This document shows positions 9,435 to 32,255 of a DNA stretch of 37,653 bases, one piece after another. Under the pieces are notes generated by a model. The model did not search any database and was not told the origin of the DNA. It saw only the letters and a list, made by a program, of their open reading frames with translations. A program made the translations under genes and the position numbers. Position 1 is the stretch's first letter, and each line of letters opens with the position of its first letter. Source of the DNA: a virus (Duplodnaviria; Heunggongvirae; Uroviricota; Caudoviricetes); IMG/VR virus record IMGVR_UViG_2778261231_000003, one strand, 5' to 3'.

Positions 9435-10601
9435 TTAAACTCCTTTGACGACGTCGGCGTTGACCTGCGGGACCCCGATTTCAGCAGCCAGATTCATGGC
9501 GGCTATCACCAGGTTACTGACGGCCAGCGGATACAGCAGGCTGACCATGCTTTTACGGCTACTACCCAGATTGCTCAGACGGGCGCGGATGGCTTCCACT
9601 GCGCTGGCGTCCATGATGTCGGCCAGCTGCTTACCGGCACGTTGCAGTTTGAACGTCAGAAACTCTTCGAGGCTGTTGTCCAGCGGCAGCAATTCAACCA
9701 ACTCGCAGCGCTGGACGACCTCACGGACTTCCATGTTGCGTTCGGACAGTTTGTCCGCCAGTTCAGGCTGGCCAATCAGCACGATGGACAGCAGTTTTTT
9801 GAAGCCGGACTCCAGTTCGAAGAAGCGTTTAAGGTGCTTCAGCGTCGGAATGGGAAGGCTGTGGGCCTCCTCAATCACCAGAACGTGGCTGAAACCCGCC
9901 TGACTGCTGTCCTTCAGGACTCGGTGCAACTGGCGGAAGCGGGCGTCCTGGCTGCGTTTGATACTCTCCAGCGGCGCGATGGTGCTGATGATGGCCTCGG
10001 CGATAGCTGCCGCCTTCAGGGTTTTGCCCTTCACGTCGTTGTCTTCCATGGCGATGATGTATGGCTCGATTACAATCACCGGCGCGTTCTCGCGGTTGAC
10101 GCGTTCAATCAGGTCGCGGCGCAGCGTGGATTTACCCGCACCGGACTCGCCGATAACCGCCAGAAAGCCACCATGGCGGGCGGTCTGGAACAGCGCCTCA
10201 CGCACGTAGCGGATATCCGGCGTGGTGAACACATCGTCCGCGCCCTGCATGGCTTCATCGGCGAACGGATCACGGAAAAGGCCAAACGCTTTTTTGGTTG
10301 CTGGAAATAACACCTGCTTTTTGAGTAACATGTTCTCTTCCTCACTGAGGTTGGTTTTATCGGTAGTACCCGCTGTACGGGGCGTGACAGCGCCCTGTGC
10401 AGCATCAAAACTTTTCACTGTATCAATCCCCTTACTTTCCAGATACAACGCCAGACGCTGGCGTACCTCTTCGGGGCTGGTGCGTGGCCACTCGTTATGG
10501 TTCACAATCTGGGCCAGCGTGGCCTCGGAAACGGCGACGGCTCTTGCCACCACCGCCTGCGGGATGCGGGCCTCTTTCAGTTGTTGCTTCAGTACCAGCA
10601 T
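9435..10601 (-). CDS. Transposition ATPase / target-DNA activator (Mu B-like AAA+ protein)
   Basis: N-terminal HTH region, Walker A GESGAGKST, downstream acidic Walker B-like stretch; sits directly after the transposase gene; GAGGAGG Shine-Dalgarno. Confidence 0.8.
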   Translation of the reverse strand: MLVLKQQLKEARIPQAVVARAVAVSEATLAQIVNHNEWPRTSPEEVRQRLALYLESKGIDTVKSFDAAQGAVTPRTAGTTDKTNLSEEENMLLKKQVLFPATKKAFGLFRDPFADEAMQGADDVFTTPDIRYVREALFQTARHGGFLAVIGESGAGKSTLRRDLIERVNRENAPVIVIEPYIIAMEDNDVKGKTLKAAAIAEAIISTIAPLESIKRSQDARFRQLHRVLKDSSQAGFSHVLVIEEAHSLPIPTLKHLKRFFELESGFKKLLSIVLIGQPELADKLSERNMEVREVVQRCELVELLPLDNSLEEFLTFKLQRAGKQLADIMDASAVEAIRARLSNLGSSRKSMVSLLYPLAVSNLVIAAMNLAAEIGVPQVNADVVKGV

Positions 10602-10611
10602 GCCTTCCTCC

Positions 10612-12381
10612 TCAGTTACCGTTAACGATGCTGATAACGCTGTTGCGGGCCGGAGTGGTCAGGGTAACCATCACCTCATCCAGCGCGGCTTCAGGTACGC
10701 CATCCGGGTACTGCGCCGTTAACTGGCGGTAATGTTCCGGCGTCCAGATATGGCCGTTAGCGCCAAACTTCTCGCGCAGGGCTTTCGCCGCCTCCACATG
10801 GGTCAGCGGACGCTGCTCAATACGCGGCCCGCGCACGTCTGAAGCCTGACCGCGCTTCGGCATATAGGCCGGAAGCGTGGTGTCGTCGATATGTTTGTAC
10901 GGGTCAAGTCGCCCGCCGAACGGCAGCGCCTTCGCCTTGCGTGCAGCAGCTGCATCGGTGGCGTTATCGGTGCCCGTAACCAGCTCTTCGATTTCTTTTG
11001 CCGCCGTCTGCGCCGGGGTCTCCGGCAGGGCTTTGTAGTTTTCGCCAAATACCGCCGCGTTTTCGGCAAAGCCGAACTCGTTCTTTCTGACCTCCTCGAC
11101 CAGGAAGAACGTCTCGTGACCGTCCTCACCGGTCAGCACCACCTGCGCCACATCGCTGCGCCACGGGTTACGGGTAATCATCAGTTTTTCGCCGACCAGT
11201 ACGCCCGGTACCGTCGAAACGTCAAACTCATTGCCCCGGAACGAGACGCGCAGTTTTGGTGTGACCTTACGGAGTTCCGGTGCGGCCACCGCCAGTTCGC
11301 GGCAAACCTCAACGGATGGCGCTTTTTTCAGCTGGTCAGCAGTAATCTTCAGCCAGATATCCGTGCGGGTTTTACCGTGGCGGCTGTGGACCGCCGTGGC
11401 GTTAAAGTGGCTGCGCCATTTCACCGCCAGTGCGTTCAGTTCGTCCAGGCTATGAACCGGCTGGAATTTGAGACCCGGCTCCAGTTTACGTTCGATAATG
11501 TCACGGGCCTTTTCCACCTGCCCGGTGGCGCGGGCGTTATGCGGCTTGTGCGCTATCAGATTGATGCCCAGCGAGCGGCACATGTTTTTCGTCATGCCAG
11601 CGGTGTTCGCCGAACCGGGATCAAGGTAGAGTATTTTCGGCACGCCGTGCAGCACGTCCGCGCCGCCGCGCTCCTGCATGGCGTTGATAAGCACAGAACA
11701 GAGGTTCTCACCAGATTCCGCACCCATCACGTACTCAACGTAAATCCAGCCGCTGGTATGGTCGGTAATCTCGTAACTCCACACGCGGTCACTGGCGATG
11801 CGGGCGATGTTGGCAGGCTTGTTCTTGTAGAACTTCGAGCTGTCCATCACCTGCAACCCTTTATGGCCGTTGCTCAGGTAGTAAAGCGTACAAAGTGAGG
11901 CATCAATCTCCCAGACGTGATTGGGATGCAGGCTGGCCATCTCGGACGACGGGGCCGGTGCGTCAAGCTGTTCCGGGTGCAGACCATAGTTCCGCAGGGC
12001 GCGGCTGATGGTGTCCTCGGACAGCGGGAAAAACTCGCCTGTGGCCTCGTCCGTTCTGCCAGCAGTGATAAAGCCGTTTGACCGCAGGGTCTCCACCGCA
12101 TCCGCGATGGAATACAGGCGCTTACCGTTCTTACGGGTGGCCTCGCGCAGCGTGGCAGATATCAGCGCGGCTTCGTCGCGGCTCAGGGCACTGCGCCCGG
12201 CATCGGCGCGTTTTTTACGTTTGTCAGTCACTGATACCTCCTTCAGCTTGCGCAGCAGGGTGGCGCGGGAAATGCCCAGTTCGGCGCAGGCGGCATCATA
12301 TATCGCACCACGCTTACCATGCCCCGCGTCACGTGCCGCGCGGGCAACATAAACCAGTCGTTCAGTCAGGGCGGCACTCAT
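10612..12381 (-). CDS. DDE transposase (phage transposase A; rve/integrase-core type)
   Basis: 589 aa, N-terminal HTH, central integrase-core-like region (HPNHVWEIDAS...); AGGAGG Shine-Dalgarno; upstream of the B-like ATPase as in transposable phages. Confidence 0.8.
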   Translation of the reverse strand: MSAALTERLVYVARAARDAGHGKRGAIYDAACAELGISRATLLRKLKEVSVTDKRKKRADAGRSALSRDEAALISATLREATRKNGKRLYSIADAVETLRSNGFITAGRTDEATGEFFPLSEDTISRALRNYGLHPEQLDAPAPSSEMASLHPNHVWEIDASLCTLYYLSNGHKGLQVMDSSKFYKNKPANIARIASDRVWSYEITDHTSGWIYVEYVMGAESGENLCSVLINAMQERGGADVLHGVPKILYLDPGSANTAGMTKNMCRSLGINLIAHKPHNARATGQVEKARDIIERKLEPGLKFQPVHSLDELNALAVKWRSHFNATAVHSRHGKTRTDIWLKITADQLKKAPSVEVCRELAVAAPELRKVTPKLRVSFRGNEFDVSTVPGVLVGEKLMITRNPWRSDVAQVVLTGEDGHETFFLVEEVRKNEFGFAENAAVFGENYKALPETPAQTAAKEIEELVTGTDNATDAAAARKAKALPFGGRLDPYKHIDDTTLPAYMPKRGQASDVRGPRIEQRPLTHVEAAKALREKFGANGHIWTPEHYRQLTAQYPDGVPEAALDEVMVTLTTPARNSVISIVNGN

Positions 12382-18871: not shown

Positions 18872-20391
18872 GCCAGCTTGCTCCTGTTTTGCCTGACACC
18901 TCGGCGCTGGATATCCCCGCCGTTCTGATGCCCTACCAGCAGCGCTGGGTGGCTGACACGTCTCCGCTCAAGGTGATTGAGAAGAGCCGCCGAACCGGTA
19001 TCACCTGGGCTGAGGCGTCCGATGACGTGCTGACCGCAGCCTCTTCAGCCCCTGCGGGTGGGATGAACGTGTATTACATCGCCTATAACCAGGACATGAC
19101 CGTCGAATATATTCAGGCGTGTGCGATGTGGGCGCGGGCATTCAACTATGCCGCCAGTGAAATCGAAGAGGGTTTCTGGGAAGAGGACGAAGACGACAAG
19201 CATATCAAGACCTACACCATCAAATTCCCTGACTCCGGCTTCCGCGTTGTCGCGCTCTCCAGCCGTCCGTCTAACCTGCGTGGCCGTCAGGGCATCATCG
19301 TTATCGACGAAGCGGCGTTCCATGAGCAACTGGACGAACTGCTGAAGGCGGCGCTGGCGATGCTTATCTGGGGCGGTAAAGTGCGCGTTATCTCCACCCA
19401 TGACGGTGACGATAACCCGTTCAATACGCTTATCGGTGATATCCGGGCCGGGCGTCAGGGGGGCAGCGTACATCGCATTACTTTTCAGGAGGCTGTGTCC
19501 CAAGGGCTGTTCCACCGCGTCTGCCTGCGTACCGGGAAAGAATGGTCGGAAGCATCCGAGCAGGCGTGGATGGCATCGGTGTACAAATTCTACGGTGCCG
19601 GTGCATCGGAGGAGCTTGACTGTGTTCCGGCCAACGGTGGCGGAGCCTGGCTGTCCCGCGCCCTGATTGAGTCCCGTATGTCGGCTGGCACGCCGGTGTT
19701 GCGTCTGACCTGCCCGGAGGGTTACGAGCTGAAGCCCGATGATGTCCGCTGGAGCGAGACGCAGGAGTGGCTTGATACACATCTGAAACCGTTGCTGGAG
19801 GCGCTCCCCGCTGACGCACGTTCTTTCCTGGGTCGCGACTTTGGCCGCAGCGGTGACCTGTCGGTGGACTATCCCCTGCTGCAGGAGAAGAACCTAGTTC
19901 GCCGCGTGCCGTTCGTGCTGGAGCTGCGCAACGTGCCGTTCAAACAGCAGGAGCAAATCGCCTGGTACCTGATGGATGGCCTGCCAAACCTGATGGGCGC
20001 GGCGCTTGATGCCCGTGGTAACGGCTCTTACCTCGCCGAATACGCCATGCAGCGCTACGGCTCCAGCCGGGTTAAGCAGGTGATGCCAACTGAAAACTGG
20101 TATCGCGAGCATATGCCGCCGGTCAAGGCTGCGCTGGAAGATGGCAACCTGGTGGATTTACCGAAGGATGAAGATACGCTGGATGACCTGCGGGCCGTTC
20201 AGGTGGTAAACGGCGTTCCCCGCGTGCCGGAACAGCGCTCAAAAGCGAAGTCTGACAGTGGCAAGCGTCACGGGGATTCAGCCATCGCACTGGCGCTGGC
20301 GTACTTCGCCAGTCGTGAAATTAACAAAGGGCCGGTGAAGGCAAGCTCACGCCGTCGTCGTCAGGCGGCCCGTATGCTGGAGGATTACTGA
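18868..20391 (+). CDS. Terminase large subunit (Mu gp28-like)
   Basis: 507 aa, located between the DUF3486 gene and the portal gene; start overlaps upstream stop. Confidence 0.8.
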   Translation: MSQLAPVLPDTSALDIPAVLMPYQQRWVADTSPLKVIEKSRRTGITWAEASDDVLTAASSAPAGGMNVYYIAYNQDMTVEYIQACAMWARAFNYAASEIEEGFWEEDEDDKHIKTYTIKFPDSGFRVVALSSRPSNLRGRQGIIVIDEAAFHEQLDELLKAALAMLIWGGKVRVISTHDGDDNPFNTLIGDIRAGRQGGSVHRITFQEAVSQGLFHRVCLRTGKEWSEASEQAWMASVYKFYGAGASEELDCVPANGGGAWLSRALIESRMSAGTPVLRLTCPEGYELKPDDVRWSETQEWLDTHLKPLLEALPADARSFLGRDFGRSGDLSVDYPLLQEKNLVRRVPFVLELRNVPFKQQEQIAWYLMDGLPNLMGAALDARGNGSYLAEYAMQRYGSSRVKQVMPTENWYREHMPPVKAALEDGNLVDLPKDEDTLDDLRAVQVVNGVPRVPEQRSKAKSDSGKRHGDSAIALALAYFASREINKGPVKASSRRRRQAARMLEDY

Positions 20392-21887
20392 TGGCCCGTG
20401 GACTCTGGGTTTCACCCAGTGAGTTCGTCAAATTTGCCGAACCTAATAAAACACTGACGGAGCAGATCGCCTCGCGCAGCCGCTCCATCGACTTCTTCGG
20501 GCTGGGGATGTACCTGCCTAACCCTGACCCCATTCTGAAATCTCAGGGCCGGGATATCCGCATCTATCGCGAGCTGCGTACCGACCCGCTGGTCGGTGGC
20601 TGCATCCGCAGGCGTAAGGCGGCGGTCAAATCGCTGGAGCGCGGTCTTGAACGTGGCCATGCCCCGGCGCGGGTATTCAGCTTCATCCGGGATATGCTCG
20701 ACGATCTGGATCTGTCCCGCATCATCGGCGAGATGACCGACGCCGTTCTCTACGGGTATCAGCCCTGTGAGATCATGTGGGGACGCTCTGTTAAATCCTG
20801 GGCCATTGCCGATATCGTAGGTAAACCCCCTGAGTGGTTCCAGTTCGACAACGACAACCTGCTGCGCTTTCGCGCCAAGGACGCCGGGCTGGAAGGCGAG
20901 CCGGTACCGCTGAACAAGTTTGTGGTACCGCGTCAGGACGCGACCTACGATAACCCGTATGGCTTCCCTGACCTGTCGATGTGCTTCTGGCCCGTGACCT
21001 TCAAAAAAGGCGGCATGAAGTTCTGGGTGCGCTTTGCCGAGAAATATGGCTCACCGTGGGTTATCGGCAAGCATCCGCGCGGTACCGCTCAGGGTGAGAT
21101 TGACCTGCTGCTGGATTCCATGGAGGCAATGGTGGAAGACGCGGTGGCCGCTATCCCCGACGATTCCTCCATTGAAATTAAGGAGGCCGCAGGCAAGGCC
21201 GACAGCAGCGATATTTATCAGAACCTGATAACGCTTGCCCGCAGTGAAATCTCCATCGCCCTGCTGGGGCAGAACCAGACCACCGAGGCCAACAGTAACC
21301 GCGCCTCCGCGCAGGCCGGACTGGAGGTTACTGATGATATCCGTGACGCTGACGCTGATATCGTGGAAAGCGCGGTGAATCAGGCCATCAGGATGGCGGT
21401 ATCAATGAACTTTGGCGACGTGGCCAGCCCCGTCTGGAAGATGTGGGAACAGGGAACGGTCGACGATACCCAGGCAACCCGCGACGAGAAACTCAGCCGC
21501 TCCGGTGTGGTCTTCACCCCGCAATACTTCAAGCGTGAGTACCAGCTGCAGGACGGTGATATTGACGAGACACCACCGTCAGAACGCCAGAAGAACATGC
21601 TGCCGCTGTCATTTGCCGAAGCTATTGATGCCGATATTCAGGCACAGCAGGCCCTGGACGACGCGCTGGATATTATGATGAACGGAGGCGCGTTAAATGG
21701 CACGCTGGAACCCGTACTGGCTCCTTTGTTTAAGCGGGTTGAAGATGGCGTCAATCCGTCTGAGCTGCTGGGCGAACTGGCCGAGCTGTACCCGCAGATG
21801 AACGCTGAAGACCTGCAGGAACGGCTGGCACGGATTATGTTTGTTGCAACTGTCTGGGGGCGTCTGCATGAGCGTGACAACGGCTGA
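20391..21887 (+). CDS. Portal protein (Mu gp29-like, DUF935)
   Basis: 498 aa; N-terminal region typical of Mu-type portal proteins; followed by the Mu F-like gene. Confidence 0.8.
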   Translation: MARGLWVSPSEFVKFAEPNKTLTEQIASRSRSIDFFGLGMYLPNPDPILKSQGRDIRIYRELRTDPLVGGCIRRRKAAVKSLERGLERGHAPARVFSFIRDMLDDLDLSRIIGEMTDAVLYGYQPCEIMWGRSVKSWAIADIVGKPPEWFQFDNDNLLRFRAKDAGLEGEPVPLNKFVVPRQDATYDNPYGFPDLSMCFWPVTFKKGGMKFWVRFAEKYGSPWVIGKHPRGTAQGEIDLLLDSMEAMVEDAVAAIPDDSSIEIKEAAGKADSSDIYQNLITLARSEISIALLGQNQTTEANSNRASAQAGLEVTDDIRDADADIVESAVNQAIRMAVSMNFGDVASPVWKMWEQGTVDDTQATRDEKLSRSGVVFTPQYFKREYQLQDGDIDETPPSERQKNMLPLSFAEAIDADIQAQQALDDALDIMMNGGALNGTLEPVLAPLFKRVEDGVNPSELLGELAELYPQMNAEDLQERLARIMFVATVWGRLHERDNG

Positions 21888-26708: not shown

Positions 26709-26959
26709 TGAAAGAATACCGCTATTCCGGCCCGGCCAGCGGCGTCACGCTGTCGGACGGAACCGAAATCCTGCTCTGGCCGGGGAAGAATGTTTCCCTG
26801 CCGGAGGAGCATGACTATGTGAAGGTACTGGTGGCGCTGAAGCATCTGACACCGGTATCTGAAGAGACTAAACCCGCCAGCACACCGGTTGTGCAGTCAC
26901 CAAAGCGCAGGAACGCCGGCGACAACGATGTGAAAACGGAGGACTCCCATGGCAGCTAA
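26705..26959 (+). CDS. Small hypothetical protein upstream of the sheath gene
   Basis: 84 aa; start overlaps upstream stop. Confidence 0.5.
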   Translation: MMKEYRYSGPASGVTLSDGTEILLWPGKNVSLPEEHDYVKVLVALKHLTPVSEETKPASTPVVQSPKRRNAGDNDVKTEDSHGS

Positions 26960-28376
26960 CTATCTGCATGGCGTCGAAACCATTGAGGTGGAAAACGGTG
27001 CCCGCCCGGTAAAAATGGTGAAGTCTGCCGTCATTGGCCTGATTGGTACCGCCCCGATGGGGGACGTCAATACGCTGGTGCAGTGCCTGTCTGAGAAAGA
27101 TGCAGCGGCGTTTGGCAGCCAGCTCACCGGTTTTACCATTCCGCAGGCGCTGGATGCGATCTACGACCATGGGGCAGGCACCGTTCTGGTCATTAACGTG
27201 CTTGATCCGGCTGTGCATAAAACCGCTGTGGCCGATGAAGATGTAACGTTCGACAAGGCGACGGGCAAGGCACAGCTGGCTAATCCGGTGGTCGCGCAGC
27301 TGGTACTGAAACCGGACAGCGATGGCCAGCCTTATGTGGAAGGTCAGGACTACTCGCTTGATGCACAGACCGGAGTGATTACCAACCTTGGTAAGAGCAT
27401 TGCCGCAGATGCAACGGTGAAGGCCAGCTATAACTATGCTGATCCAACTAAAGTCACCCCGGCTGATATCATCGGTGCCGTTAACGCTGCGGGCAACCGT
27501 ACCGGCATGAAGCTGCTTAACGACAGCTTCAACCTGTTTGGCTACTTCGCAAAAATACTGATTGCCCCGGTCTTCTGCACCCAGAACAGCGTCTCGGTTG
27601 AGCTTATCGCCATGGCTGAGAAGCTGGGCGCGGTGACCTACATCGACGCGCCGATTGGTACCACTTTTGCGCAGGCTCTGGCGGGGCGTGGCCCGGAAGG
27701 CACCATTAACTTCAACACCAGCTCCGACCGCGTCCGTCTGTGCTACCCGCACGTCAAGGTGTACGACGCGGCCACCAACAGCGAACGGCTGGAGCCGCTG
27801 AGCCAGCGTGCTGCAGGTCTGCGTGCCAAAGTCGACCTGGACAAGGGCTACTGGTGGTCGTCCTCCAACCAGGAAATTCTGGGTATCACCGGCGTGGAGC
27901 GCCAGCTGTCGGCAATGATTGACGACCCGCAGAGCGAGGTGAACCTGCTCAACGAACAGGGCATCACCACGGTCTTCAGCAGCTACGGCAGCGGCCTGCG
28001 TCTGTGGGGCAACCGTATGGCGGCATGGCCAACGGTCACCCATATGCGCAACTTTGAGAACGTTCGCCGTACCGGTGATGTGATCAACGAGTCCCTGCGT
28101 TACTTCAGCCAGCAGTACATCGACATGCCGATTACCCAGGCGCTGATTGATGCGCTGACGGAGTCGGTCAACGCCTACGGTCGCAAGCTGATTGGCGACG
28201 GTGCGCTGCTGGGCTTCAGCTGCTGGTTTGATCCGGCCCGCAACGAAGAGACGGAGCTTGCCGCCGGTCACCTGTTGCTGAGCTACAAATACACGCCACC
28301 ACCACCGCTGGAGCGACTGACGTTTGAGACCGAGATCACCTCGGAATATCTGTTAACCCTGAAGGGGAATAGCTGA
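26949..28376 (+). CDS. Tail sheath protein (Mu L-like)
   Basis: 475 aa, directly upstream of the tube gene; contractile-tail gene order. Confidence 0.8.
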   Translation: MAANYLHGVETIEVENGARPVKMVKSAVIGLIGTAPMGDVNTLVQCLSEKDAAAFGSQLTGFTIPQALDAIYDHGAGTVLVINVLDPAVHKTAVADEDVTFDKATGKAQLANPVVAQLVLKPDSDGQPYVEGQDYSLDAQTGVITNLGKSIAADATVKASYNYADPTKVTPADIIGAVNAAGNRTGMKLLNDSFNLFGYFAKILIAPVFCTQNSVSVELIAMAEKLGAVTYIDAPIGTTFAQALAGRGPEGTINFNTSSDRVRLCYPHVKVYDAATNSERLEPLSQRAAGLRAKVDLDKGYWWSSSNQEILGITGVERQLSAMIDDPQSEVNLLNEQGITTVFSSYGSGLRLWGNRMAAWPTVTHMRNFENVRRTGDVINESLRYFSQQYIDMPITQALIDALTESVNAYGRKLIGDGALLGFSCWFDPARNEETELAAGHLLLSYKYTPPPPLERLTFETEITSEYLLTLKGNS

Positions 28377-28897
28377 TGGCAAAGATTGAGATCAACCGCA
28401 TCACGAATGCCAACATCTACCTGGATGGCGCTAACCTGCTGGGCCGGGCCGAGGAGGTCAAACTCCCGGACGTCTCCATGACCATGCAGGAGCATAAGGC
28501 GCTGGGGATGGTGGGCAAAGTGGAACTCCCGGCAGGCTTCGACAAGCTGGAGGGTGAGATCAAGTGGAACAGCTTTTACCGCGACGCGATGCTGTCTGCT
28601 GCGAACCCGTATAAGTCGCTGGCGCTGCAGTGCCGTTCCAGCGTCCAGCGCTACAGTTCGCAGGGGCTGATTGACGAAATCCCGCTGGTCACATTCCTGA
28701 CGATCATGTTCAAGAAGAACCCGCTGGGGACGTTCAAACAGCACGAGAACGCCGAGTTCTCTAGCAGCTTCACCTGCACGTACATCAAGCAGGTACTGGA
28801 TGGTGAAGAGCTGCTGGAGCTGGACTATCTGGCCAACATCTTCCGAGTCGGCGGCGTTGACCAGTTGACTGACTACCGCATCAATATCGGGGGCTGA
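28376..28897 (+). CDS. Tail tube protein
   Basis: 173 aa after sheath; start overlaps sheath stop. Confidence 0.75.
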   Translation: MAKIEINRITNANIYLDGANLLGRAEEVKLPDVSMTMQEHKALGMVGKVELPAGFDKLEGEIKWNSFYRDAMLSAANPYKSLALQCRSSVQRYSSQGLIDEIPLVTFLTIMFKKNPLGTFKQHENAEFSSSFTCTYIKQVLDGEELLELDYLANIFRVGGVDQLTDYRINIGG

Positions 28898-28899
28898 CG

Positions 28900-29181
28900 G
28901 TGACCGTCGAGATTGAAGATAAAGGCGGGAACTGTGGTTCGATTGGCATGGGAAATGGTACGTGGTTTACCATCCTTGATATTCCGGGGGTGGAAAACCT
29001 TTTTAATACCCAGAAAACCAATGATCCGATTGACTGCACCCGCTCTAAAGCACGGAAGCTCGCTGACCTGATTGAGGCATGGGAGCCACCTGACCACTGG
29101 TTCACCGGCATCGGCAAATCTGAAGGAAAGGCGCTTCTTATCGCCTTCCTGCGTAACTGCAAAGGCTTTCGCACTCACTGA
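28900..29181 (+). CDS. Small hypothetical protein between tube and chaperone genes (possible moron)
   Basis: GTG 28900 after GGGGG Shine-Dalgarno; 93 aa with several Cys; followed by a strong terminator. Confidence 0.45.
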   Translation: MTVEIEDKGGNCGSIGMGNGTWFTILDIPGVENLFNTQKTNDPIDCTRSKARKLADLIEAWEPPDHWFTGIGKSEGKALLIAFLRNCKGFRTH

Positions 29182-29187
29182 TATCAC

Positions 29188-29211
29188 AGGGGCTTCGGCC
29201 CCTTTCTTCTT
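29188..29211 (+). terminator. Rho-independent terminator
   Basis: AGGGGC-TTCG-GCCCCT (6-bp GC-rich stem, TTCG tetraloop) followed by TTCTTCTT. Confidence 0.65.
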
Positions 29212-29279
29212 AATCCCCTTTAATATCCGTCACGTCCACCTCCAGACATACTGCTCTGAACTTACACAGGAGCACGATC

Positions 29280-29594
29280 ATGTCACAGACCCAATCCGAT
29301 ACTTTTAAGCTGTCTTACCCCTTCACCACCGCAGCAGGCACCAGAGTTGAGCAGGTTGAACTGAAACGCCTGACGGTCAAAGACCTGAAGCAGGTGCGCA
29401 AAATCAGTAAAGACCCGGCTGACTGGGACGAACCGCTCATTGCCCGTAGCACCGGTATTCTCCCCGAAGACCTCGATAACATGGATCTTGCCGATTACAT
29501 GGAGCTGCAGAAACGATTTCAGCAAGTCACTGGGCTGGGCAAGAGCGACGAAAACGCTGATGCAGGCGCAGGGGCTGCTGGCGAGGTGGTTTAG
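29280..29594 (+). CDS. Tail assembly chaperone (gpE / gp41-like, upstream frame)
   Basis: 104 aa immediately upstream of the tape measure gene, overlapped by a second ORF whose product ends ...LARWFRFQPGEIDALDTDDLEMWLEQAEEQIK, the conserved extension of frameshifted tail chaperones. Confidence 0.7.
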   Translation: MSQTQSDTFKLSYPFTTAAGTRVEQVELKRLTVKDLKQVRKISKDPADWDEPLIARSTGILPEDLDNMDLADYMELQKRFQQVTGLGKSDENADAGAGAAGEVV

Positions 29595-29697
29595 ATTTCA
29601 GCCGGGGGAGATTGATGCCCTCGATACTGACGATCTGGAGATGTGGCTGGAGCAGGCTGAAGAGCAAATCAAAAGCGAGTTCGGCGACAATCAGTAA
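29440..29697 (+). CDS. Frameshift extension ORF of the tail assembly chaperone (E'/G-T-like)
   Basis: Open frame offset +1 (equivalent to -2) from 29280-29594, extending 103 nt past its TAG; conserved RWFRFQPGE motif. Slip site not identified. Confidence 0.45.
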   Translation: MPVAPVFSPKTSITWILPITWSCRNDFSKSLGWARATKTLMQAQGLLARWFRFQPGEIDALDTDDLEMWLEQAEEQIKSEFGDNQ

Positions 29698-29789
29698 CGA
29701 CTCATCACTTAACAGCCGCCCCTCGCGGCTGTTCTGCATGGCTCTCAGACATTTTCCTTCCGTTTTTCCGCTTTCAGAGGATAACAACC

Positions 29790-32255
29790 GTGGCCAGTGA
29801 ATTTTCAGTCGGCGTCATTATTGGCGGCATTGTCGGAAGCAGCTTCCGCTCAGCCGTCAGTGGCACCCGACGCGCCCTAGATTCCCTGGGCGATACATCG
29901 CGCCGCCTGCAGGAACGCCAGAATGCCTTAACTCGTGCAACTGAACGTTATGGCCAGTTAGGCTCTTCCCGGATGCAGCGCCTCAACAGCGAACTGCTGC
30001 GGGTAAGCCGCACAATGGAGCAAATTGAACGCCAGCAGCGCCGTCTGTCAGCAGTATCAGCCACCAGTGACGCGCTGAAAGCTAACCGCATGGCGCTCTA
30101 TGGCCAGGGAGCAGAGACTTATGGTATCGCCCGAACGCTGGGCGCACCGGTCATGGCCTCTGTCAAACAATATTCATCGTTTGAATCCCAGCTACGCGAT
30201 ATCAGTGTCACCGGTGATCTGGATTCAAGGCAGGAACAGGCCATCGGTACTGCCATTCGTCGGGCATCCCTGCAGGTCAATCAGCTCCAGGAATCTCTGT
30301 TGAGCGGCGTTGGTCAACTGGTTGCCGATGGCATGAATCCGCAGCAGGCAGCGACCTTTGCCGGGATGCTCGGTAAAGCGGCCACGGCCACCAAAGCAGA
30401 TATGACTGACCTCGCAAAAATGACCTATGCCTTTAGCGATGCGCTGAAAATTACCGATGCCAAAGAGCTGGAGCAGGCGTTTGGGATTGCGGCAACCGGG
30501 GCCAAGCTAGGCTCGTTTGAGCTGAAGGATATGGCGAAAGCGTTACCCGGTATGGCCAAAGCCTTCGCTGCACGTGGTATTTACGGCAAAGACGCCATAA
30601 CCCAGATCGTAGCCAGTCTGGAAGTGGGTAAAGGCAGCGGCTCAGCGGAAGAGGCCGTCACCAATATGTCAAACTGGCTGGCGGCAATGGGACGCGGAGA
30701 TACCACGCAGAAATACGCTAAGGCTGGCGTGGATTACCAGGGATCAATGCAAAATTATGTAGCCCAGGGGTTCTCTCAATATGAAGCCTCCCTGATGATT
30801 GCCAACCGGTTTATCGACGGTAAAGGCAAGGCATTTGTGCAGCAATGGAAGGCGGCAGGCTCAAGAGGCGATCAGGAAGGCCAGCAGAGGCTGATGGAGT
30901 CCTTCGGACTGGCGGAAGTCTTTACCGATATCCAGACCGTGAACCATCTACTGTCTATGCGTCAGGGCTGGGATAAGTACCAATCTAACAAGCAGGAAAT
31001 GAACACTCCCTCTGCAATGTCTACGCTGGACAAGGATGCAGCGAAACAAAATGATACGCTCGAAGGACGTTGGCGCAGAACGCAGATTGGGTTTAACGAC
31101 TCGGCCATTAGCATCGGAGAATCATTACGTCCGGCGTTGATCCAGCTGGGGGAAACATTCATCCCCTTAATGAACAGCGTTGGAAAATGGATTGCGGCTA
31201 ATCCGCAACTCGTGAGCGGCACAATTCAAGTGATTGGCGCATTACTTGCGTTCAAGATGGCAACCATCGGCCTCAAGCTCGGGCTGAATCTCCTTATTTC
31301 ACCTTTCGTCAACGTCTGGAAAAATGCCGTGCTCCTGCGGGCCAACTGGCTTCGCCTGACACTCGCGCTGGGTGAAGGCGGCAAACTTCGCTGGCTGGTG
31401 ACCGGCTTCAGCGCCGTCGCCAGAGGAGCCAGAACACTGGGTGGTGTGCTGTCAGGTGGGCTGGTTCGCGGCATTATGATCGCCGGGCGTGCCGTTCTCT
31501 GGATTGGGCGGGCATTGCTGATGAATCCCATTGGTCTTGCTATCACCGCCGTCGCGGCGGCGGCTTATCTTATTTATCGTAACTGGGGGGCTGTCAGCAG
31601 TTGGTTCAAACAGCGCTGGGCTGACATTAAAGAGGCTTTTAACGGCGGTATCGTGGGGATTGGTAAACTGCTGATTAACTGGTCGCCGGTTGGTCTGCTC
31701 TATAAAGCCTTTGCGGCTGCGCTGAAATATCTCGGCGTTGATCTGCCCGCGAAGTTCACTGACTTCGGTGGCCATCTTATCGACGGGCTGATAAACGGCA
31801 TCAAAAACAAATGGGAGTCGCTCAAAACCACCGTCACAGATATGGGTGACAGTGTCGGCGGCTGGTTCAAGGAAAAGCTGGGTATCCATTCGCCGAGCCG
31901 CGTGTTTATGGGCTTTGGTGACAACATCGCGCAGGGTGCCGCTATCGGCCTGCAGCGTACCACACCACTGGCAGCGCTCGCCGGACAACGCCTGGCAACA
32001 GAGATGACTCCCGATGTTCCCCGTATCCCGTCGCCGGAAATCATGGCTGCGGGATATTCAGGTCGTGGCGCAGTTGCAACTGGCGGCGGAACATCTGGCG
32101 GTATCCAGGTCAGCTTTAATCCTCAGTTTTTCCTCAATGGCAAAGAAACCGCAGCGCCTGCCGGACTGACCGGCGCACTGAATATGAGCCTGCATGAACT
32201 GGAGAAAATGCTGGAGCGTCTGCTGGCTCAGAAACAACGTCGGGGGTACGAATAA
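29790..32255 (+). CDS. Tail tape measure protein
   Basis: 821 aa, Ala/Gly-rich with hydrophobic central segments; GTG start after AGAGGA; position after the chaperone pair. Confidence 0.85.
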   Translation: MASEFSVGVIIGGIVGSSFRSAVSGTRRALDSLGDTSRRLQERQNALTRATERYGQLGSSRMQRLNSELLRVSRTMEQIERQQRRLSAVSATSDALKANRMALYGQGAETYGIARTLGAPVMASVKQYSSFESQLRDISVTGDLDSRQEQAIGTAIRRASLQVNQLQESLLSGVGQLVADGMNPQQAATFAGMLGKAATATKADMTDLAKMTYAFSDALKITDAKELEQAFGIAATGAKLGSFELKDMAKALPGMAKAFAARGIYGKDAITQIVASLEVGKGSGSAEEAVTNMSNWLAAMGRGDTTQKYAKAGVDYQGSMQNYVAQGFSQYEASLMIANRFIDGKGKAFVQQWKAAGSRGDQEGQQRLMESFGLAEVFTDIQTVNHLLSMRQGWDKYQSNKQEMNTPSAMSTLDKDAAKQNDTLEGRWRRTQIGFNDSAISIGESLRPALIQLGETFIPLMNSVGKWIAANPQLVSGTIQVIGALLAFKMATIGLKLGLNLLISPFVNVWKNAVLLRANWLRLTLALGEGGKLRWLVTGFSAVARGARTLGGVLSGGLVRGIMIAGRAVLWIGRALLMNPIGLAITAVAAAAYLIYRNWGAVSSWFKQRWADIKEAFNGGIVGIGKLLINWSPVGLLYKAFAAALKYLGVDLPAKFTDFGGHLIDGLINGIKNKWESLKTTVTDMGDSVGGWFKEKLGIHSPSRVFMGFGDNIAQGAAIGLQRTTPLAALAGQRLATEMTPDVPRIPSPEIMAAGYSGRGAVATGGGTSGGIQVSFNPQFFLNGKETAAPAGLTGALNMSLHELEKMLERLLAQKQRRGYE

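Follow-up and report, generated by a model that had tools for sequence, protein, structure and literature searches.

The window analyzed here, a 37,653-nucleotide stretch of DNA from a virus of the Caudoviricetes, covers a prophage in which the region of the tail chaperone pair was matched in 639 of 5,426 complete E. coli genomes (approximately 12%); strain 730V1 is 100% identical to the window over 29280 to 29800. The prophage belongs to the BcepMu type of Mu-like transposable phages and carries a P2-type tail, with genes for the sheath, the FII tube, E, T, U, X, D, and J. The original prediction had spoken of a Mu-type tail module, which fits only loosely. A pair of overlapping tail chaperone reading frames sits between the tail tube gene (28376 to 28897; Pfam Phage_tube) and the tape-measure gene (29790 to 32255, plus strand; Pfam PF10145 PhageMin_Tail, 59.9 bits), the downstream neighbor that defines the chaperone position and whose equivalent is labeled tape measure in the records of KP12, PhiKM, and E. 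coli.

The upstream frame (frame 0) is an ATG ORF of 104 amino acids on the plus strand (29280 to 29594) with the 3' end GAG GTG GTT TAG, the TAG occupying 29592 to 29594. It encodes a tail assembly chaperone homologous to P2 gpE and BcepMu gp41. Residues 8 to 84 matched Pfam PF10109 (Phage_TAC_7), a family that takes in P2 E and Mu gp41, with 80.9 bits against a cutoff of 25, and the same domain was found in all 24 modeled fusions, P2 itself being among the 24. An NCBIfam scan of both ORFs of the pair gave zero matches. The conserved chaperone domain ends at approximately F80 to T84, while the frame-0 product of close relatives is 90, 104, 106, 109, 111, or 140 amino acids long; judged from these comparisons, the last 24 residues of the 104-amino-acid product are a variable and dispensable tail.

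The second frame is offset by +1 (29440 is 1 mod 3 relative to 29280) and is open from at least 29440 to the TAA at 29695 to 29697, reading TGG TTT AGA TTT CAG across the frame-0 stop. The coordinates and frames of the pair agree with those originally predicted, and a -1 slip cannot reach the extension. The predicted lack of a canonical slippery heptamer also held, as no X_XXY_YYZ motif is present. Related loci were located by their E' motif, and the +1 offset was seen in all 147 of those in which both parts could be found; this comparison set represents 47 distinct contexts and extends from Enterobacterales to Burkholderiales and Pseudomonas.

The +1 frame encodes the E' extension (29521 to 29697, plus strand), which has 58 codons followed by the TAA and the translation SKSLGWARATKTLMQAQGLLARWFRFQPGEIDALDTDDLEMWLEQAEEQIKSEFGDNQ. 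Joined to residues 1 to 80 of the chaperone, it gives a predicted E+E' fusion of 138 amino acids. The +1-frame protein is conserved in Enterobacterales, Burkholderiales, and Pseudomonas from just past the Phe codon at the end of the chaperone domain, and across genera it retains a W (TGG, 29536 to 29538) and an L (29557 to 29559; CTG, CTC, or TTG), both upstream of the LLARWF motif. The conserved core of the extension, LARWFRFQPGEIDALDTDDLEMWLEQAEEQIKS (29578 to 29676, plus strand), appears to be related to P2 E' and the "GpE" domain. E' matched Pfam PF06528 (Phage_P2_GpE) with 16.5 bits and an E value of 0.006, which is under the 23-bit cutoff of the family, and 13 of the 24 modeled fusions (again counting P2) matched it at an E value of ≤0.01. 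The family E' profile scored 11 bits against residues 108 to 134 of P2 E+E'.

Third-position variation identified a dual-coding overlap (29521 to 29591, plus strand) in which the same nucleotides encode the tail of E in frame 0 and the linker of E' in the +1 frame. Upstream of 29517, variation at frame-0 third positions is dominant (69 of 78 sites), whereas 17 of the 24 variable sites in the overlap lie at +1-frame third positions versus 11 of 24 at frame-0 third positions, and from 29566 on the variation has the signature of the +1 frame alone (5/8, 0/9, and 1/9). The change point in codon periodicity was at 29496 to 29516. Among 48 unique close relatives, all differences between 29566 and 29612 are synonymous in the +1 frame, while in frame 0 the same stretch changes residues and gains or loses stops. 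By this pattern of substitutions, the recurrence of the +1 offset in all 147 loci, and the matches in 639 E. coli genomes, the arrangement of the two frames is not a matter of chance. It is extremely improbable that the 104-amino-acid chaperone is the sole product and the +1 ORF a relic or a frame open by chance: some Mu-like phages, such as KS10, were reported to have no detectable frameshift (PMC2628397), and the fusion product is annotated in none of the records examined, but the +1 frame is under strong purifying selection across bacterial orders, with synonymous substitutions, and the extension is probably homologous to P2 E'.

It is also quite improbable that E' is a separate small protein with its own initiation in the +1 frame and no frameshift. 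The databases do list the chaperone and the extension as two separate genes, and RefSeq starts the separate CDS at the equivalent of ATG 29560 or of a GTG at 29539. However, the annotated starts vary between genomes and have no Shine-Dalgarno (SD) sequence before them, and ATG 29560 is replaced by ACG, ACA, AAA, or ATT in relatives. The conservation of the +1 frame reaches upstream of these starts, back to a TTT_C sequence, and P2 produces its homologous E' solely through a frameshift, as part of a fusion (GenBank AF063097).

The sequence to which this conservation reaches back is the proposed +1 shift site, CGA_UUU_C (29514 to 29520, plus strand), with TTT at 29517 to 29519 and the C at 29520; the +1 frame is open, and under selection, from there on. 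The site lies approximately 75 nucleotides, or 25 codons, upstream of the frame-0 stop. An in-frame TTT followed by C was present in 147/147 of the +1-offset loci and in 47/47 of the distinct contexts, at a position 19 to 22 codons before RWF (42 in BcepMu). The frame-0 codon after TTT is CAG, CAA, CAT, CTG, CGC, CGG, or CGT; that is, the residue after the conserved Phe varies (Q, H, L, or R) while the first base of its codon is always C. In the neighboring genes of GC-rich hosts, TTC and TTT occur at a ratio of 340:100, yet the candidate slip site is always TTT. The conservation of UUU_C is in part at the protein level, as the Phe at this position is a conserved residue of the chaperone domain.

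Stops in the two frames bracket the site, an argument which presupposes that its position is conserved across relatives. On the upstream side, a +1-frame stop lies 3 codons before TTT in Ralstonia, in Pseudomonas, and in loci L135, L142, L145, and L146. On the downstream side, the frame-0 stop lies 2 to 59 codons past the conserved Phe codon in the 147 loci and just 2 to 9 codons past it in Betaproteobacteria; the distance is 2 codons in L130 (UUU_UUU_CGC_UGA) and 6 to 9 codons in eight others. The eight early-stop Betaproteobacterial loci were +1 offset on inspection. The stretch in which a shift is possible measures 10 codons in L145, and only TTT to TTC re-pairs within it. A 90-amino-acid variant of frame 0, with TAG at codon 91, was found on 914 contigs and ends at the equivalent of 29550.

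P-site +1 slippage is established for UUU_C, and tRNA-Phe binds UUC better than UUU (PMC3498833). At the proposed site, re-pairing from UUU to UUC is cognate, and re-pairing by -2 (to GAU) is impossible. A P-site +1 slip of tRNA-Phe would therefore be the best model, because only UUU to UUC re-pairs as a cognate there, and we consider that the extension is probably reached by such a slip on UUU_C at 29517 to 29520.

A shift further downstream in the overlap is unlikely. Three candidates, GCA_GGG_G (29568 to 29574, +1 on tRNA-Gly), GGC_GCA (29565 to 29570, -2 on tRNA-Ala), and GUU_UAG, are all within the open overlap of the window, and the E. coli clade shows no variation in NCA GGG. The GCGC of the second candidate permits -2 re-pairing of tRNA-Ala in the window, and elsewhere, stops such as that of the third can promote +1 shifting (PMC3498833). 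Outside the window, however, GGG_G is GGG_C, GGG_T, or GGG_A in many close relatives and GGC_GCA is GGC_ACA, GGC_TCA, or GGT_GCA, and the downstream motifs are absent from Salmonella, Ralstonia, and Betaproteobacteria. The +1-frame W (29536) and L (29557), which lie upstream of the candidates, are conserved across orders, and the early frame-0 ends described above, both on the 914 contigs and in the relatives with a stop 2 to 9 codons past TTT, also argue against a downstream shift.

The original prediction had placed the shift at or near GUU_UAG_A, and we rejected this position. The frame-0 stop (TAG, 29592 to 29594, plus strand) is lineage specific; PhiKM-type relatives have CCG or CAG in its place and a TGA 7 codons later. 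Whether the sequence is TAG A, CCG G, or CAG G, the +1 frame encodes Phe-Arg, with TTT AGA replaced by the synonymous TTC CGG or TTC AGG, which implies that ribosomes around the stop are already in the +1 frame. Additionally, tRNA-Val on GUU is unable to re-pair with UUU.

The original prediction had also raised a -2 shift, like the one that Mu uses at this position. For Mu this is accurate: GenBank AF083977 carries the statement "verified -2 translational frameshift in PMID 15469818," three further papers agree (PMC5009743, PMC3498833, and PMC2628397), and the gene pair is analogous. For the prophage described here, a Mu-type -2 slip on a G run, like that on CGG_GGG_CGA in Mu, nevertheless is very improbable. 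A G5 run resembling the Mu slip site is present in the window (29604 to 29608, plus strand), Ralstonia has GGC_GGG_GGA in frame 0, and the G5 run is the exact fusion point of several database ORFs. Against this, the run, the sole one of its kind, lies past the frame-0 TAG, and no G run on which tRNA-Gly could re-pair two bases back was found within the frame-0 ORF. The G5 run is a by-product of +1-frame Pro-Gly-Glu codons and is interrupted in relatives (CCT GGG, CCA GGG, or GGT GAG, and CCG AGT GAG in most other genera). Slippage at the run would leave out LLARWFRFQP, the best-conserved portion of E', which is under +1-frame constraint, and the -2 re-pairing to GAU is, as noted, impossible at UUU_C. 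The fused ORFs found among 5.8 billion proteins have scattered junctions, all at homopolymers, which is consistent with indels, and loss of one G at 29604 to 29608 accounts for several of them; no annotated fusion with an RF-SKS junction was found among the same proteins.

With its position between tube and tape-measure genes, an overlapping second ORF without a conserved start, and a conserved slippery site, the locus is the tail assembly chaperone pair of a BcepMu-like prophage, equivalent to E and E+E' of P2 and to G and GT of lambda. In the mechanism that we propose, most ribosomes would read frame 0 and produce E, consisting of the chaperone domain of approximately 80 amino acids and the dispensable tail. 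In a minority of ribosomes, peptidyl-tRNA-Phe on UUU (29517 to 29519) in the P site would slip by +1 onto UUC (29518 to 29520), after which AGC (29521 to 29523) would be read next and translation would continue in the +1 frame to the TAA at 29695 to 29697. The product would be the 138-amino-acid E+E' fusion, whose C-terminal domain would be the counterpart of P2 E'. If the two proteins act as G and GT do in lambda, E and E+E' would coat the tape-measure protein, with the extension recruiting the tube protein, and a low ratio of fusion would be expected from the lambda gpG/gpGT paradigm (PMC5009743).

Downstream of the proposed site, no conserved RNA structure was found, and no fold was either significant or consistent (z = -1.4 for the window; for 22 relatives, z ranged from -3.3 to +1.4), nor is there an SD-like element upstream of the site in the window, where the sequence is CAG AAA CGA; GGAG at RF2 spacing occurs only in L142, L144, L145, and L104. 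A stop directly after UUU_C is absent, and the site is not of the prfB (RF2) type. In Enterobacterales, the codon entering the A site is CAG, CAA, CTG, or CAT, and in GC-rich hosts it is CGC or CGG; none of these is known to be a hungry codon in its host, and CGC is the common Arg codon of GC-rich hosts. Because no known slow A-site codon, stop, structure, or SD-like element is present, only the intrinsic slipperiness of UUU_C is left to explain the efficiency of the putative shift. Transcriptional slippage was rejected, as the site in the window has only three T residues and no long homopolymer.

Among known systems, P2 gpE/gpE+E' shares with this locus the gene position (FI sheath, FII tube, E, E', T), the Phage_TAC_7 chaperone, and an apparently related E' domain (WFRFQPGEI here versus IFHWPPSEL in P2). 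The linker that leads to the E' motif is of comparable length (27 against 24 amino acids), and the P2 -1 site, GGT TTT TTG, aligns 2 to 4 residues from F80, a Phe located where the chaperone domain ends. In P2, however, a -1 slip on a U-rich heptamer has been experimentally established, whereas the extension here is in the +1 frame and a slip on UUU_C is what the sequence comparisons suggest. Mu gp41 also belongs to a Mu-like transposable phage with a chaperone pair before the tape measure and an extension in the +1/-2 frame. The Mu shift is by -2 on CGG_GGG_CGA, occurs at approximately 2.2%, and uses a G5 run 8 codons before the stop, while the locus described here has no conserved G run in frame 0 and a candidate site 25 codons before the stop; the Mu extension has no Pfam GpE match. 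Lambda gpG/gpGT, too, are two products with a common N terminus, encoded between the tube or major tail gene and the tape measure and made by recoding, but the lambda shift is a -1 shift on a canonical heptamer, the tail is noncontractile, and there is no sequence similarity.

The same tetranucleotide occurs at the influenza A virus PA-X site (UCC_UUU_CGU), at which P-site tRNA-Phe slips from UUU onto UUC and, as far as detectable, no RNA structure is needed. The A-site codon here is CAG (E. coli) or the common CGC (GC-rich hosts), in contrast to PA-X, and the gene and its function are unrelated. BcepMu, with UCC_UUU_CGC, has a site of the same form as that of influenza virus, and many Betaproteobacterial relatives have NCC_UUU_CGC. 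BcepMu gp41/gp42 (Bcepmuvirus, the closest named phage group) are homologous to the genes described here and have the same +1 offset and TTT_C (TCC TTT CGC), but their linker is 20 residues longer.

We lean slightly towards the broader view that a widespread clade of P2/BcepMu-type chaperones, spanning Enterobacterales, Burkholderiales, and Pseudomonas, makes an essential E+E' through programmed +1 slippage of tRNA-Phe at a UUU_C that stands alone, with no stop, rare codon, SD-like element, or structure. Natural programmed +1 sites are few in bacteria and phages, and most need a stop or hungry codon together with an SD-like stimulator. If the view is correct, bacteria would have their own equivalent of the influenza PA-X site, located in a gene that would have to supply two products in a fixed ratio, and a conserved UUU_C with no detectable stimulator would provide a simple and testable model of P-site slippage in E. 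coli. Homologous genes then would have exchanged a -1 shift (U_UUU_UUG in P2) and a +1 shift (UUU_C) at essentially one Phe codon, and one chaperone family would include shifts in three directions (-1, +1, and -2), with two of the three at almost one and the same codon. The site also would supply a positive +1 example for frameshift predictors; PRFect predicted 0 of the 481 forward shifts of the RECODE set (PMC10885494).

The annotation of these loci would be affected in the same way, with hundreds of prophage records to be corrected in which the 138-amino-acid E+E' would be missing and the start of the "GpE family" gene spurious. PGAP names the extension ORF "GpE family phage tail protein." In the GenBank record of BcepMu, gp42 is given as a separate "lambda G" analogue, and ribosomal slippage is placed between gp42 and gp43 rather than between gp41 and gp42.

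The prophage in the window belongs to the BcepMu type of Mu-like transposable phages and has a contractile tail of the P2 type. It encodes an AAA+ MuB-like protein (9435-10601), an rve transposase (10612-12381), a Mu-type portal (20391-21887), a sheath (26949-28376), an FII tube (28376-28897), and a tape-measure protein (29790-32255), with homologues of GpU, X, GpD, and J also among the tail genes. The chaperone, E, is an ATG ORF of 104 aa (29280-29594) situated between the tube and tape-measure genes. It scores 80.9 bits against Pfam Phage_TAC_7 ("tail assembly chaperone proteins E, or 41 or 14"), and it overlaps a +1-offset frame, E', open from at least 29440 to a TAA at 29695-29697. The closest phage records were Klebsiella phage KP12 (99.7% identical over 28900-29800), Phi06_2974 B, and Escherichia phage PhiKM, a phage assigned to Bcepmuvirus. 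The coordinates, frame arithmetic, and stop context of the pair in the original prediction all agreed with the ORF list and the window sequence, and no canonical X_XXY_YYZ heptamer is present. Programmed +1 frameshifting at CGA_UUU_C (29514-29520), yielding a 138-aa E+E' fusion, is the best explanation and a fairly probable one, a judgment drawn wholly from comparative evidence.

The original prediction had placed a +1 or -2 shift at or near the frame-0 stop, GUU UAG. PhiKM, 88% identical over the aligned part, reads CCG GTT where the window reads TAG ATT, a sense codon versus a stop in frame 0, and the +1 frame is Phe-Arg-Phe in both (TTC CGG TTT versus TTT AGA TTT). From 80 viral contigs, 47 distinct versions of the region were compared, and all differences over 29566-29612 were synonymous or at third positions in the +1 frame (GCG/GCA/GCT, GGG/GGC/GGT/GGA, CTG/CTC/CTA, AGG/AGA, TTT/TTC, AGA/AGG/CGG, CAG/CAA, CCG/CCT/CCA, GGG/GGT, and GAG/GAA); the frame-0 amino acids change. 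Thus, ribosomes making the extension are in the +1 frame well upstream of TAG, which excludes that stop as the shift site. The Mu-like G5 run at 29604-29608 was also excluded: it lies 3' of TAG, its +1-frame reading is simply Pro-Gly-Glu, and relatives have it interrupted or lack it. Among relatives, the frame-0 ORF is 90, 104, 106, 109, 111, or 140 aa long. The shortest form results from CAG to TAG at codon 91 (window equivalent, 29550-29552; database protein P0023 and locus L053) and is present in the E. coli clade on 914 contigs, complete chromosomes included; therefore, the frame-0 tail past residue 90 is dispensable. E' might instead be initiated independently, and PGAP does annotate a gene of its own, "GpE family phage tail protein," from ATG 29560. 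However, this is unlikely, because that ATG is ACG, ACA, AAA, or ATT in relatives and PGAP chose another start in another genome.

We added distant relatives (Salmonella, Ralstonia phage YO107_2, Pseudomonas phage Komp_PAO1_1, and BcepMu) and 58 further genome loci gathered by an E' motif search. The +1 offset was universal among the relatives examined except for one Pasteurella phage, AFS-2018a, whose E' homologue lies in the -1 frame and whose stop is preceded, two codons upstream, by a canonical A_AAG_GGA heptamer (about 1730-1745 of locus L090); thus, -1 and +1 solutions coexist in the E/E' family. Conservation of the +1 frame extends far upstream of its LLARWFRF core. From Enterobacterales to Burkholderiales, a Trp (TGG, 29536-29538, within frame-0 codons that always read NTG GNN) and a Leu (29557-29559; CTG, CTC, or TTG) are kept in this frame. 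In 147/147 loci (47 distinct 21-nt contexts), the end of the chaperone domain carries an in-frame TTT with C as the next base, 19 to 22 codons before the RWF motif (42 in BcepMu). Frame 0 continues with CAG, CAA, CAT, CTG, CGC, CGG, or CGT, so that the residue varies (Q, H, L, or R), yet the codon always begins with C. Stops in both frames bracket the site across relatives. A +1-frame stop lies 3 codons 5' of TTT_C in the Ralstonia and Pseudomonas phages and in loci L135, L142, L145, and L146, and a frame-0 stop lies 2 codons 3' in L130 (UUU_UUU_CGC_UGA) and 6 to 9 codons 3' in eight other betaproteobacterial loci; in the E. coli clade, the 90-aa variant ends at the equivalent of 29550. The entire permissible stretch in Brachymonas (L145) is ATG GAG ATG TTT CGC TCG GTT GCG GGT ATC TGA, where cognate re-pairing is possible only from TTT to TTC and no -2 re-pairing exists.

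How often third positions vary in each frame differed by region in 48 unique close relatives. Upstream of 29517, variable third positions numbered 69/78 in frame 0 and 33/78 in the +1 frame; the counts were 11/24 and 17/24 over 29520-29591 and 7/33 and 23/34 past the frame-0 stop. When a two-state change-point model was fitted, the switch fell at 29496-29516 (within 2 lnL), right at TTT_C rather than close to 29590. Across 18 loci, most of them GC-rich (GC, 0.42 to 0.67), the slip-site codon is always TTT despite a TTC:TTT ratio of 340:100 in neighbouring long ORFs.

In the mechanism with the best support, peptidyl-tRNA-Phe in the P site would slip +1 from UUU (29517-29519) to UUC (29518-29520), and AGC (29521-29523) would be decoded next. 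UUU-pyrimidine sites are reportedly +1 shift-prone in E. coli, in work attributed to Fu and Parker (1994) and Schwartz and Curran (1997). For influenza PA-X (UCC_UUU_CGU), mass spectrometry and mutagenesis demonstrated the same P-site +1 slip, and the single tRNA-Phe there (3'-AAG-5') binds UUC more strongly than UUU (PMC3498833); the BcepMu site is UCC_UUU_CGC. We found no stimulator. Downstream RNA structure was neither significant nor consistent (z = -1.4 for the window; 22 relatives ranged from -3.3 to +1.4), the A-site codon after UUU is neither a stop nor a recognised hungry codon, and the window lacks a Shine-Dalgarno-like element. In the 15 nt 5' of TTT_C, a Shine-Dalgarno-like GGAG exactly 3 nt 5' of UUU, the RF2-type +1 spacing, occurs only in L142, L144, L145, and L104, with GGGG in L130. 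Enterobacterales almost always have the rare codon CGA ahead of UUU, and, speculatively, it might act on the slip through the E site. A low slip efficiency would fit the low fusion-to-chaperone ratios of lambda (30:1) and Mu (about 2%).

Recoding of tail chaperone pairs is established: most shifts are -1, Mu shifts -2, and a few phages shift +1. Reviews give -1, -2, or +1 for tailed phages at this gene pair (PMC5009743, PMC3498833, PMC2628397). Therefore, the +1 requirement here is a variant and not a new kind of system. The original prediction was right about the -2 shift of Mu: the joined chaperone CDS of GenBank AF083977 reads "verified -2 translational frameshift in PMID 15469818," reviews give about 2.2% (PMC5009743, PMC3498833, PMC2628397), and the Mu slip site is CGG_GGG_CGA, 8 codons before the frame-0 stop. 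Overall, the original prediction held for the frame and for Mu itself, but its place was wrong and a Mu-type mechanism is probably wrong. The established -1 site of P2 (annotated nt 19685, within GGT TTT TTG TCG) aligns 2 to 4 residues from F80, the slip-site Phe of the window, and the distance to the E' motif is 27 aa in P2 (FHWPPSEL) and 24 aa in the window (WFRFQPGEI). The modelled 138-aa fusion matched Phage_TAC_7 and, below threshold, Phage_P2_GpE (16.5 bits; cut-off, 23); GpE matched at E <= 0.01 in 13 of 24 modelled fusions, P2 itself among the 24, and a profile of family E' matched P2 E+E' residues 108-134. Thus, the two systems appear to share a chaperone domain, a Phe slip site (predicted in the window), a linker of about 25 aa, and an E' domain, whereas the slip direction differs (-1 in P2, +1 for the window extension).

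No description or annotation of this UUU_C site was found in the literature or records examined. In full-text searches for UUU_C with tail assembly, the PA-X paper and the Atkins review were the only hits, although an earlier mention may exist. The pair appears in phage records as E by itself or as ORFs without names, and RefSeq splits it into two genes. In BcepMu (L091, AY539836, 4603-5364), gp42 is the E' homologue, +1 relative to gp41; the record calls it a separate "lambda G" analogue and annotates "ribosomal slippage" from gp42 to gp43, which conflicts with the gp41-to-gp42 +1 model. No RF-SKS junction product was present among 5.8 billion proteins; the only fusions in the same search were ORFs joined through single-base indels at homopolymers, their junctions scattered, and these look like the result of misassembly or prophage decay, not like slippage that had been annotated. 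A single missing G in the G5 run accounts for the fusion of many database ORFs of 138 to 194 aa (P0003-P0005, P0007-P0009) and of an Erwinia tracheiphila locus (L104, around 1201), a striking recurrence; in other ORFs, the fusion lies at an A5 run (P0001) or a G3 run (P0002). In Apirhabdus apintestini (L102, about 1100-1200), one nucleotide is deleted five codons 5' of TTT_C, which permanently joins the chaperone to the +1 frame, so that only E+E' could be made, without E; either the prophage is defective or the locus was misassembled.

The tube and chaperone genes are separated by a small ORF of 93 aa (28900-29181) that is kept in KP12, PhiKM, and E. coli prophages and has no family assignment, its sole match being a weak one to DUF7739 (E 0.003). 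Directly 3' of this ORF and 77 nt before the chaperone start is a terminator-like hairpin (29188-29203; AGGGGCTTCGGCCCCT then TTCTTCTT) that could attenuate transcription between the tube and the chaperone and tape-measure genes. Between the E' stop and the tape-measure start, which are about 270 nt apart in BcepMu, there is a 9-bp hairpin (29711-29733; AACAGCCGC-CCCTC-GCGGCTGTT; z = -3.3) that is not a classical terminator, because it has no T tract. PhiKM retains its stem with a different loop.
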